A stretch of 64,000 nt of DNA. Origin: a virus. The stretch spans positions 1 through 64,000 of IMG/VR virus record IMGVR_UViG_3300046787_000327. The stretch is one strand, 5' to 3'. How positions within the stretch are numbered: the stretch's first letter is position 1; every line of letters starts with the position of its first letter. The position numbers and the translations under genes were made by a program. The notes below the pieces were generated by a model. The model was not told the origin of the DNA, did no database searches, and was given only the letters and a program-made list of their open reading frames with translations. This document shows positions 5,491 through 23,438 of the stretch, piece after piece.

Positions 5491-5685
5491 TTACCACTTT
5501 CCGATAGGACACTCTGCTTGTTTGAGTGTAGATTTTAACTTCATAAAACAACCACATTTTGTGCACTTCATAAGGCTTTTACGAAATGCTGGACATTCAT
5601 TGCAAATGGCGAGTCTTTTCTCAATTAGTTCTTTATCTGACCTAGGCTGGTTAGGATCAAATAAGTCACTAAACTTTACTTCCAT
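5491..5685 (-). CDS. DUF6171-like Cys-rich metal-binding protein
   Basis: RLxICxxCP...CxxCGCFM...CPxGKW; paralog at 12586. Confidence 0.7.
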   Translation of the reverse strand: MEVKFSDLFDPNQPRSDKELIEKRLAICNECPAFRKSLMKCTKCGCFMKLKSTLKQAECPIGKW

Positions 5686-6446: not shown

Positions 6447-6476
6447 TTTTATAAAACTCCCCTTATAATGTATTTC

Positions 6477-6761
6477 ATGACTGCTCAAGAATGGCTTGGC
6501 CTTATTTTAACAACTTTGTCAATTGTAGCACTTATCGCAGGGGCTGTCAAACGATACATTGATGCAAGATTTGAGCCTATCAAGTGCGTTGTAGAAGAAA
6601 TCAGAGCAGAGACTAAGACAAACGGTGGATCTTCAATGCGTGATGAGATTAAGTTCATCAAAACCACCCAAACAGAACATATTAAGCGTCAAGAATTAAG
6701 TGACGAAAAATTAAATCACATGTACGAAGTTCTGCTAGACTATATTTCTACAAAACGATAG
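6477..6761 (+). CDS. Membrane protein (N-terminal TM plus coiled coil; holin/lysis-accessory-like)
   Basis: TM helix; NGGSSMRD motif typical of actinophage lysis-region proteins; TATAAT 7 nt upstream. Confidence 0.6.
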   Translation: MTAQEWLGLILTTLSIVALIAGAVKRYIDARFEPIKCVVEEIRAETKTNGGSSMRDEIKFIKTTQTEHIKRQELSDEKLNHMYEVLLDYISTKR

Positions 6762-6965
6762 ACTTCTGGTCTTTGATATATATAATTTATATTTAATATA
6801 AAAACCCTTTAGAGATAGTTTTCTTTTCTTTATATATTTAAAGTATACACCATCCAAACACTTGATGCTTTAGTACAAACTATAATAAATCGGACATTTA
6901 GGATTGTAACAATCTGATAACTTTTAAATATATGTCCGTTTTGTACTGATATGATATAATTTATA

Positions 6966-7014
6966 TACTACTATCAAGAACTGTTCTTCATACCCACCTT
7001 TCTTGATAGTAGTA
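6966..7014 (+). ncRNA. Candidate hairpin sRNA: 15-bp perfect stem, 19-nt loop complementary to SD+AUG
   Basis: TACTACTATCAAGAA/TTCTTGATAGTAGTA; own promoter TGATATAAT 6952-6960. Confidence 0.6.
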
Positions 7015-7041
7015 CTATTTTAGTGGTATAATCGTTCTATT

Positions 7042-7428
7042 ATGACAAGTTGCTGCAGTCCTGAAACCTTTGGTGCTGATCCTATTTCCATTAAGTGGAA
7101 TGTTGTTAGAGGAGACAAAGCATCTATCCGTATTGAGTTTTTAAATAACGATGAAGTAACTTACTTTGATATTTCTGACTGGTCATTTAAGTCACAGGCC
7201 TATGATCCTAAAACAGATATTATTGATGAATTAGAAGTTGTTGTTGGTGATGGATATGTAGATATTATTGCTCAACCTGAACTTAGTCAATACTGGGGAA
7301 CAGGCTATACATCAGTAGTTAGTGAATTAACCTTTGATTTAGAAGTTACCCTGGCTGACGAGACAGTCTGGACACCCGTTATCGGCGTTGTAAGGGTCTT
7401 AGGCGATGTTTCAGGAGGAAGTCTATAG
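7042..7428 (+). CDS. Virion Ig-like (BppU N-terminal-like) protein
   Basis: Beta-rich VRGD...FDL pattern; paralogs at 8275 and 16682. Confidence 0.55.
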   Translation: MTSCCSPETFGADPISIKWNVVRGDKASIRIEFLNNDEVTYFDISDWSFKSQAYDPKTDIIDELEVVVGDGYVDIIAQPELSQYWGTGYTSVVSELTFDLEVTLADETVWTPVIGVVRVLGDVSGGSL

Positions 7429-22169: not shown

Positions 22170-23438
22170 ATGGCAGCAGGTAAGAAATCAGGCAGAAAGT
22201 CCCAAGCGTCAAATGACTTCTTGGAACCATTAGCACCAACAGGTGTGACTGGAACAGATGTAGGAACAGGAAGAGCATTTGATAATGGTGCAGCAACTGT
22301 TACCTTCTCTTTACCAGCACTATCACCTGCTGCTACATCCTATACAGTAACAGCAAGCACAGGGCAAACAGCAACAGGATCATCTTCTCCTATTACAGTT
22401 ACTGGCTTGCCTTCTAACACATCTGTAACCTTTACAGTAACTGCAACTAATGCTGCAGGAACTTCTCAGGCCTCATCTGCTTCTTCAGCATTAACAGTAA
22501 CAACTGTTCCAGCAACACCTTCAGCACCAACTGCAACAGCAGGTGTTAATCAAGATACAGTTGCATGGACAGCACCATCAAATGGTGGGTCTGCTATTAC
22601 TGGATACACCTGGGCGTCATCAGACTCTAAGGGTGGATCAACTGCAGGAACTTCTGTTACAGTTTCACAGGAAGCAAATACTGCACAGACATATACAGTC
22701 TATGCAACAAATGCTAACGGAAACTCAGGAACATCGGCAGCATCTAACTCTGTTACGACAGTGCCACCGTTCTTCCCACCGTTCTTCCCACCTTACTTCC
22801 CTTACTTCCCTTACTTCCCGTTCTTCCCACCATTCTTCCCACCATCATTCCCATTCTTCCCACCGTTCTTCCCGTTCTTCCCACCATTCTTCCCACCGTT
22901 CTTCCCACCATCATTTCCGTACTTCCCGTACTTCATCCCTTGGTTTGGACCACCATGTGTAGAAGAGAACACACTGGTTGACACACCTAACGGACAGATT
23001 CCTGTAAAGAATCTTCAAGTTGGAGATGTAATTTGGTCAACACCAATCACTGAACTAGACGAGTCTGAGCCAGACTGGAACAAGTACGCTTGGTCCTCAA
23101 ACAGCCTAAATACAGGCAACTTGGTTGAGACAACTATTACAGCGATGGAGACTGTTGAGGAGTCAGATATCATCTGTTTCAATGGAAACACAGATATTCG
23201 AATTACCTTCACACAACCAATATTCGTAAAAACACTCAATAATCAGTACAAGATTAAAGAGGCCTACTACGTAGAAATTGGAGAGAGTTTGATAGTCGTA
23301 GACTCAACTGGTCAAAAGGTTGAAGTTCCTGTAACAGATATCGAACACTTCACAGACGAAGTAGTCAATGTATACCAGATTTCCTGTGAACCGTACGACT
23401 GGTTCTTTGTAAGTGGTATACTAGTACACAACAAGTAA
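22170..23438 (+). CDS. Protein with 2 FN3 domains, a Pro/Phe tract and a C-terminal Hint domain
   Basis: FN3 motifs (VTGL...FTVTATNAAG); 64-aa PPFF tract; Hint about 84% identical to that of 10062. Confidence 0.85.
   Translation: MAAGKKSGRKSQASNDFLEPLAPTGVTGTDVGTGRAFDNGAATVTFSLPALSPAATSYTVTASTGQTATGSSSPITVTGLPSNTSVTFTVTATNAAGTSQASSASSALTVTTVPATPSAPTATAGVNQDTVAWTAPSNGGSAITGYTWASSDSKGGSTAGTSVTVSQEANTAQTYTVYATNANGNSGTSAASNSVTTVPPFFPPFFPPYFPYFPYFPFFPPFFPPSFPFFPPFFPFFPPFFPPFFPPSFPYFPYFIPWFGPPCVEENTLVDTPNGQIPVKNLQVGDVIWSTPITELDESEPDWNKYAWSSNSLNTGNLVETTITAMETVEESDIICFNGNTDIRITFTQPIFVKTLNNQYKIKEAYYVEIGESLIVVDSTGQKVEVPVTDIEHFTDEVVNVYQISCEPYDWFFVSGILVHNK
22764..22955 (+). repeat. PPFF/PYF low-complexity coding repeat
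   Basis: Directly visible. Confidence 0.9.

Follow-up and report, generated by a model that had tools for sequence, protein, structure and literature searches.

A hairpin with a 15-bp stem and a C- and U-rich loop, preceded by its own predicted promoter and followed by a U-rich tract, was identified at the head of the structural gene block of an uncultured phage. Comparison with related phages makes a strong case that the element is a real small RNA gene of ~55 nt, conserved in uncultured freshwater phages of actinobacteria. The hairpin is probably a new phage regulatory RNA that acts on a 68-aa gene of the replication module, as suggested by the agreement between its loop and the start region of that gene. 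We give a slightly better than even chance to the best explanation of the whole, namely a small RNA that pairs with the start of the 68-aa gene and represses it.

The window, i.e., the whole stretch of DNA that was analysed, comprises bases 1–64,000 of a 112,951-bp IMG/VR phage record with a G+C content of 40%. A repeat of exactly 127 bp is found at both ends of the genome (1–127 and 112,825–112,951); it looks like the assembly overlap of a circular or terminally redundant genome, and k-mer overlaps left by an assembler typically have such a length. Genes for a DnaE-type polymerase, a DnaB helicase, a WhiB-like protein and a class II ribonucleotide reductase were identified in the phage. The polymerase (55% identity) and the capsid protein (39%) are closest to those of Streptomyces cluster BE phages, and the phage is therefore assigned to the actinophages; the presence of the WhiB-like protein supports an actinobacterial host. 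Cluster BE phages, the nearest cultured relatives, have long terminal repeats, which assembly would collapse. A fragment of one relative is binned in a 1.5-Mb Actinomycetota MAG, and genomes of the order of this MAG measure 1.2–1.9 Mb. The hosts are thus probably streamlined actinobacteria of 1.2–1.9 Mb, an assignment that rests on one binned contig and is a weak pointer. The first 3 kb of the genome contain small leftward genes with GAAAGG(T/A)GG ribosome-binding sites, and from 7042 on nearly all genes run rightward, tail-fibre-like genes coming first. The structural block that follows the hairpin spans more than 57 kb. The features of the region, together with the WhiB-like gene located beyond the window, are as follows.

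5491–5685, minus strand: gene of a Cys-rich 64-aa protein, DUF6171 (E = 2e-9), the most conserved neighbour (48–81% identity in relatives)
6468–6761, plus strand: syntenic gene on the upstream side, 97 aa, with a single hydrophobic helix at the N-terminus
6892–6943, plus strand: dyad CGGACAT...ATGTCCG followed by TTTT, enclosing TTGTAACAA/GATAAC motifs
6952–6960, plus strand: P1, extended -10 promoter TGATATAAT of the putative small RNA
6966–6980, plus strand: hairpin 5′ arm TACTACTATCAAGAA
6981–6999, plus strand: loop CTGTTCTTCATACCCACCT, 19 nt, single-stranded; as RNA CUGUUCUUCAUACCCACCU, with one G
6987–6995, plus strand: predicted seed UUCAUACCC, complementary to GGGUAUGAA directly 5′ of the AUG of the 68-aa gene
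6991–6997, plus strand: invariant loop core UACCCAC, the same in every canonical element found
7000–7014, plus strand: hairpin 3′ arm TTCTTGATAGTAGTA, which also holds the -35-like TTGATA (7003–7008) of P2
7015–7022, plus strand: U-rich tail CUAUUUUA, presumed 3′ end of the RNA
7024–7032, plus strand: P2, extended -10 promoter TGGTATAAT of the next gene, whose ATG is at 7042
7042–7428, plus strand: 128-aa gene, head of the tail-fibre/structural block, which marks the conserved position of the element
Genome 90,100–90,381 (L026:6100–6381): gene of the WhiB-like protein (4 Cys, GIWGG motif); four complete relatives conserve it

The hairpin stands out in the window by its structure. The 15-bp stem is the longest perfect spaced inverted repeat within the 64 kb, and the RNA folds at -18.3 kcal/mol, compared with -6.3 ± 2.4 kcal/mol for shuffled sequences (z = -5.0; 0 of 200 shuffles equal it). 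The loop-derived sequence CATACCCACC has a single occurrence in the 112,951-bp genome, and the element contains no conserved ORF on either strand. The window contains 18 copies of the promoter core TGNTATAAT, where 4.1 would be expected, and 17 of these copies are on the plus strand; transcription from P1 is predicted to start at ~6966–6968. The promoter, the perfect stem and the loop lie exactly where the first-pass annotation had placed them. Its proposal of a separate promoter for the next gene is borne out as well, in the form of P2, which has a TTGATA-18-TGGTATAAT arrangement at 7003–7032 and serves a near-leaderless gene from 7042.

The syntenic position of the element was used to retrieve its relatives. 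A search with the 128-aa protein yielded 21 homologous loci at 52–68% identity, and pattern scans added many more. A canonical-loop element lies upstream at 18 of the loci and a hairpin with a different loop at four (L017–L019, L021). More than 30 distinct contigs of related phages carry the element, as a single copy per genome and in the same place; the relatives that bear it have genomes of ~110 kb and carry WhiB. The order of the region is kept in nearly all of them: the 97-aa membrane-protein gene, ATGTCC(G) with a T-run, TATGATATAAT, 5–8 nt, the hairpin, a T-run, TGGTATAAT, 6–9 nt and ATG. In nearly all relatives P1 is maintained in the form TATGATATAAT or TGNTATA(A/C)T at 5–8 nt before the stem, in most of them TTTTT(T) directly follows the stem, and P2 is kept 6–9 nt before the ATG, so that the mRNA has no leader or almost none. 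By this arrangement of promoter, hairpin, U-run and separate P2, the element would be a standalone, non-coding transcription unit. The earlier proposal of a standalone plus-strand RNA gene with its own promoter is in line with this architecture, kept in more than 30 relatives.

Two further features recur upstream of P1. The ATGTCC(G) with its T-run and (T/G)ATAAC repeats are found there in relatives, and the dyad at 6892–6943 is likely to set P1 apart from the upstream gene, as a terminator or a regulatory site. A promoter-like TATATATAAT (6776–6786) is followed by a non-coding block of ~55 nt, AAACCCTTTAGAGATAGTTTTCTTTTCTTTATATATTTAAAGTATACACCATC (6776–6860 in all). Most relatives share this block, located after the 97-aa gene and before P1, and it may represent another small RNA or else a regulatory site.

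The stem has been under selection for pairing. When each relative is folded independently, the stems comprise more than 12 unrelated sequences of 10–21 bp that always pair, with loops of 14–27 nt that are unpaired in every fold. The stem needs only to pair, and its sequence therefore drifts with compensating changes. In an alignment of 32 relatives fitted to a covariance model (R1), compensatory, two-sided changes are seen at all 15 stem pairs, and 97.1% of the paired cells are complementary, against 76% in shuffles and 31–46% when the 3′ partners are slid. An alignment fitted to R1 leans toward structure; the independent single-sequence folds agree with it.

The composition of the pairs identifies the strand on which selection acts. 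Over 33 distinct elements, 460 Watson-Crick, 46 G-U and 2 A-C pairs were counted, and the RNA of the plus strand is therefore the selected form rather than a DNA cruciform or operator or an RNA of the minus strand. In a DNA palindrome complementarity would be kept equally on both strands, which is not what the 46 G-U and 2 A-C pairs show. On the minus strand the loop reads AAGAAAGGTGGGTATGAAG, which is the 11-mer of two genuine early ribosome-binding sites, followed by ATG, so that the hairpin could represent a Shine-Dalgarno (SD) sequence, an AUG and a mini-ORF (in the window, MKNSS-stop) that would specify a leader peptide or the toxin of a type I toxin-antitoxin pair. We consider this very improbable: the mini-ORF varies between 3 and 12 codons with no conserved sequence, the spacing between the SD and the AUG is just 2 nt, the stem would hold 46 A-C mismatches, there is no conserved promoter on that strand, and all the downstream neighbour genes lie on the plus strand.

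An ordinary terminator or insulator, possibly bidirectional, whose loop is conserved incidentally, or else a DNA operator or cruciform, would account for the U-run after the stem, as well as for the overlap of the right arm with the -35 region of P2. The hairpins of L017–L019 resemble a plain terminator, as they have another loop and no P1 before them. However, a separate terminator-like dyad with a T-run already precedes P1, P1 is conserved directly before the stem, and the loops of terminators are not conserved, whereas the core is invariant here. A large loop on an AT-rich stem is, moreover, atypical for an efficient intrinsic terminator: a consensus terminator scan made no call at the hairpin, with its AT-rich stem of 15 bp and its loop of 19 nt, and the U-tract after the stem is poor in the window (CUAUUUUA), while most relatives have a clean run of U4–7. 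The hairpin and U-run are common to the phage element and to Rho-independent terminators; the AT-rich 15-bp stem, the 15–27-nt loop of invariant sequence and the promoter 5–8 nt upstream set it apart from them. The 46:2 asymmetry between G-U and A-C pairs excludes a DNA operator or cruciform as the selected form, and we regard this group of explanations as quite improbable.

In contrast to the drifting stem, the loop keeps the sequence (G)UCUCUCAUACCCACC, and its core UACCCAC is invariant while the flanking proteins are only 24–68% identical. The conservation of the loop in relatives, which the first-pass annotation had named as a check, is thereby established. The loop is rich in C and U, free of G in most relatives and with one G in the window. 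No family of Rfam 15 matched the interval 6500–7300, where the best scores are 15–22 bits against gathering scores of 39–134; the matches that overlap the hairpin are to miRNA models with E-values of 3.7–5.3. The 6C RNA model (RF01066) gave no match in the whole phage genome or in 41 genomes of the candidate host order. The loop also bears some resemblance to the 1180 region of 16S rRNA, 5S rRNA, the anticodon loop of the initiator tRNA, the rrn boxA and the CCA end of tRNAs; it has only 7–12 nt in common with each of these, and the invariant positions support none of them.

Part of what had been proposed for the loop concerned its action as an anti-SD and anti-AUG sequence that would silence SD-led early or host mRNAs generally, with the leaderless late mRNAs escaping. 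According to such an explanation, the loop would soak up early phage and host ribosome-binding sites, and it could do so alongside a specific target. The sequence CCACCUUUCUU exactly complements the ribosome-binding sites of two early genes (2206 and 2907), and AAGAAAGGTGG, the complement of 6994–7004, has three exact copies in the phage, all on the minus strand: 2212–2222, 2917–2927 and the loop/stem itself, the two outside copies being located just upstream of minus-strand ORF starts. The early genes carry sites of the GAAAGG(T/A)GG type, GGUGG matches the loop perfectly and CCUCC imperfectly, and in every relative the gene served by P2 has little or no leader. The 11-nt match noticed in the first-pass annotation is thus real, but six of its bases are buried in the stem, and three complete genomes of relatives contain nothing equivalent. 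The idea that the 3′ arm co-varies with the ribosome-binding sites of early genes was rejected, since no such co-variation is seen in these three genomes.

The remaining evidence argues against a general action. The loop reads CCCACC in all relatives, a poor mimic of the CCUCC of the 16S anti-SD, which was never seen among them; the CAU taken as an anti-AUG is UAU in many relatives and missing in L038, and is consequently not invariant. Internal late genes still have SD sites, and a sponge of this kind would have to exceed all mRNAs stoichiometrically. The 16-nt and 11-nt complements are not enriched in 101 genomes of the candidate host order (that of the Actinomycetota MAG bearing the phage fragment). 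A perfect target starting with M-K-N, supposed to lie outside the window, is absent from the phage. Because no perfect target exists in the phage, the complements are not enriched, the CAU varies, CCUCC does not occur and the 11-nt match is unparalleled, a general anti-SD sponge is unsupported, and we hold it to be unlikely; a single phage gene of the replication module is better supported than the silencing of SD-led early or host mRNAs. The proposal that the loop pairs with the SD and start of an mRNA outside the window survives in this narrower form, with one phage gene as the likely partner.

Searches for other partners covered the phage and a large set of bacterial genomes. In the phage genome, where the window's own 22-nt variant of the target was sought, no perfect target of the GAAAGGTGGGTATGAAGAACAG type is present, a duplex scan of both strands gave nothing that beats shuffled loops, and CATACCCACC and GGTGGGTATG occur once or not at all. 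The 185,579 reference genomes of GTDB, one per species, were searched for the 17-nt complement of the consensus loop of the relatives; the 15 matches consist of two phage copies binned into MAGs and 13 chance matches. A match in Caulobacteraceae was tempting, but its site is internal to a gene. As for a conserved host target, a 16-nt wobble pattern gave 31 matches in the 101 genomes of the candidate host order against ~45 for the control, and the 11-mer gave 47 against ~41, the controls being the reversed patterns. No copy of the element was found in these 101 genomes, where the only match of R1, sought in view of possible mimicry of a host RNA, is an unrelated terminator. The leader of the WhiB gene was discarded as well, since GGTGGGAGA falls at the end of the coding sequence of the gene before it and lacks conservation. 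Eight near-copies of AAGAACGGTGG on the minus strand (22764–22903) are the source of the 1-mismatch matches in the 11-mer search; they correspond to a repeated CCACCGTTCTT coding motif of the Pro-Pro-Phe-Phe type in the ORF 22170–23438 and are unrelated to the RNA.

The candidate that emerged from the comparison of genomes is the start region of a 68-aa gene, situated outside the window and 58 kb from the hairpin in this genome.

Genome 65,127–65,138 (L025:1127–1138): candidate site GGGUAUGAA-AUG (GGGTATGAA-ATG)
Genome 65,136 (L025:1136–1345): start of the 68-aa gene, phrog_5189, in the replication module

The 68-aa gene is followed by a 102-aa gene and a DnaB-like helicase gene, with overlapping stop and start codons. 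Its product is widespread, being found in more than 590 IMG/VR contigs with ~78–90% identity among the best 80. Across the start windows of 78 ortholog groups from four complete genomes, 76 distinct 8-mers are conserved, and GGGTATGA, the complement of UCAUACCC in the loop, is among them; the chance that one of four loop-complement 8-mers is found among the 76 has a nominal p of ~0.005, an optimistic value because the target emerged after several other target hypotheses had failed. Depending on the relative, the pairing site is located at -9 to -1 or across the AUG. The predicted duplex has -14.6 kcal/mol in the window lineage and comprises 7–9 bp with -11 to -19 kcal/mol across genomes. In a scan of the single genome the site (-14.6) is not the best, with values of up to -24.9 elsewhere and of -21 to -26 for shuffled loops genome-wide. 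In the window lineage, the true start of the 68-aa gene is overlapped by an ORF of 13 codons (65,127–65,170; L025:1127–1170), which begins at an AUG in another frame (GGGU-AUG-AAA-UGG...). In other lineages the AUG is fused directly to GGGU, and the 5-nt difference leaves GGGUAUG intact.

The evidence for the 68-aa gene comes mainly from the comparison of loops and start regions in the 25 genomes that hold both. The genomes fall into the following groups.

Class A, 15 genomes: loop CAUACCC, start region GG(G)TATG; GGGTATGAA-ATG in eight (AGGTATGAA in G132) and GGGT-ATG-GAA in seven
Class A′, 5 genomes: loop UAUACCC, start region GGGTATA
Class B, 3 genomes: loop UACCC(C)ACCCC, start region ATGGGTGGGTA-ATG (GGGTGGGTA); loop segment CCCACCCC pairs with start-region segment GGGUGGGUA
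G115: canonical loop, start region GGAGAGAC-ATG, which pairs with the 5′ half of the loop, GUCUCUC
G111: canonical loop with the RNA present; a weak match, with only 6 bp of complementarity

Four start-region classes thus match four loop states. In a cross matrix, the loops of classes A and A′ each pair better with start regions of their own class than with those of the other, and good pairing of the class B loops is confined to start regions of class B. Against background windows, the start region of the same genome falls within the best 0–14% in 22 of 22 genomes, and mostly within the best 0.2–5%. The start regions have drifted in two lineages without the RNA, G107 and G175, the latter a complete genome; the absence from G175 was judged from the syntenic site and a pattern search, as R1 misses the class B elements.

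The independence of these observations is limited. The tally of 20 of 20 does not correspond to 20 independent observations, because the genomes are related and the switch between A and A′ needs only 1–2 events on the tree of the replication-module proteins. The 128-aa gene yields a conflicting tree, with full support in both, in which G117 is placed with G130 and G132 with G137. This conflict points to a recent exchange of the tail-fibre-proximal module among these phages, and the agreement between RNA and start region may consequently reflect linkage in part. After a change from C to U, the loop could still pair with the old target by way of G-U. Only part of the core is used by the 68-aa site in classes A and A′, which leaves the invariant CCACC unexplained; its conservation also fits the general anti-SD explanation and suggests further targets or a role in the kinetics of pairing. 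All considered, we judge it reasonably likely that the start region of the 68-aa gene is the true target. If the pairing is true, GGGTGGATA start regions are expected to occur with a UAUCCACCC loop or with loss of the RNA, and loops of the UAUACCC type found in L009 and L512 with GGGTATA (or G) start regions, while the combination of a CAUACCC loop with GGGTATA is not expected. L009 and L512, independent lineages with a U in the loop, stand outside the pairing set, as their contigs are too short to include the start regions.

A different function has to be weighed for an element with this location. A hairpin near its promoter, with covariation in the stem and conservation of the loop, is reminiscent of boxB-type sites; the element is placed exactly before the structural block of more than 57 kb, and no strong, extended RNA target was found. 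The RNA could accordingly act in cis where the late block begins, its nascent loop being bound by a phage or host factor that modifies or releases RNA polymerase, as with lambda nut/boxB or PR'-tR', or it could serve as a protein decoy. Against this, P2 follows at once and yields a proper leaderless mRNA, so that read-through from P1 is not needed, and many more TGNTATAAT promoters lie within the structural block. The spacing between the loop and P2 varies by 28–36 nt, a variation that also led us to reject a site for a DNA-binding activator of P2. The loop co-varies with a distant start region, which is unexpected for a protein site, and no partner protein was identified. We find this function unlikely, on a par with the general anti-SD action. 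The resemblance extends to the lambda PR'-tR' 6S RNA, a short promoter-proximal transcript that ends at a terminator just before the late genes, and to nut/boxB, in which a covarying stem carries a conserved loop. Unlike these, the phage element has a second promoter after the terminator and no Q- or N-like partner was identified; it further differs from boxB in its 15-bp stem, its loop of 15–20 nt and the co-variation of this loop with a distant mRNA site.

Returning to the small RNA that would repress the 68-aa gene, the arrangement of the element and its conservation suggest the following course of events. The host RNA polymerase would start at P1, copy the 15-bp hairpin and stop at the U-rich tract, to give a trans-acting phage RNA of ~50–58 nt whose stem displays the conserved C/U-rich loop. 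The loop would pair with the G-rich region that comprises the SD, the spacer and the start codon of the 68-aa gene, as its complementarity and co-variation with this region suggest. Pairing within the footprint of the ribosome would block initiation on the 68-aa gene, and translational coupling would spread the repression to the helicase cistrons. The RNA may in this way aid the switch from replication to virion production, a role proposed because P1 resembles the promoters of the structural genes and heads that block. Additional targets are possible, for instance host mRNAs with ribosome-binding sites of the GGUGG type.

The predicted mode of action has parallels among known RNAs. C-rich loops are found in the sRNAs 6C/B11 of Mycobacterium, Corynebacterium and Streptomyces, in RsaE/RoxS, in RNAIII and the Rsa RNAs of S. 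aureus with their UCCC motifs, and in LhrC of Listeria. As in these, an unstructured C-rich hairpin loop, here that of a putative terminator hairpin, would pair with a G-rich SD or start region. By contrast, the phage element is a single hairpin where 6C has two, shows no sequence or model similarity to these RNAs, is encoded by a lytic-type phage and has a phage gene as its predicted target. To our knowledge, no Hfq-type chaperone is to be expected in actinobacteria. The c4 RNA of phages P1 and P7 and the CI RNA of P4 are small hairpin RNAs whose loops pair in trans near the ribosome-binding site of a phage operon, and the predicted pairing of the phage RNA near such a site, with control of translationally coupled downstream genes, is alike. 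However, c4 and CI arise by processing of longer transcripts, those of the operon under their control, and serve the immunity of temperate elements, whereas the RNA described here has its own predicted promoter and terminator, is encoded 45–58 kb from its predicted target and belongs to a lytic-type phage in which no lysogeny genes were noticed.

The element is a new RNA family, and its proposed action would be a new arrangement within a known regulatory principle. We know of few trans-acting regulatory RNAs of virulent phages with known targets and of none characterised in actinophages, and a literature search found no characterised trans-acting regulatory RNA of actinophages. Comparison of sequences by itself provides a covarying RNA family at a fixed position, a testable target and lineages with natural loss of the RNA. 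At its fullest, the proposal is that a lytic actinophage uses a dedicated 55-nt hairpin RNA, transcribed from a promoter of the structural-gene type, to shut down translation of its own replication operon, with a loop and a ribosome-binding site that co-evolve throughout a large clade of these freshwater phages, as a timer of the passage from replication to assembly that may act on host GGUGG sites too; we put this forward tentatively, at somewhat less than an even chance. If confirmed, a compact module of promoter, hairpin and terminator would join the known designs of bacterial sRNAs, and the timing of phage replication genes would be RNA-based in very abundant freshwater phage-host systems.
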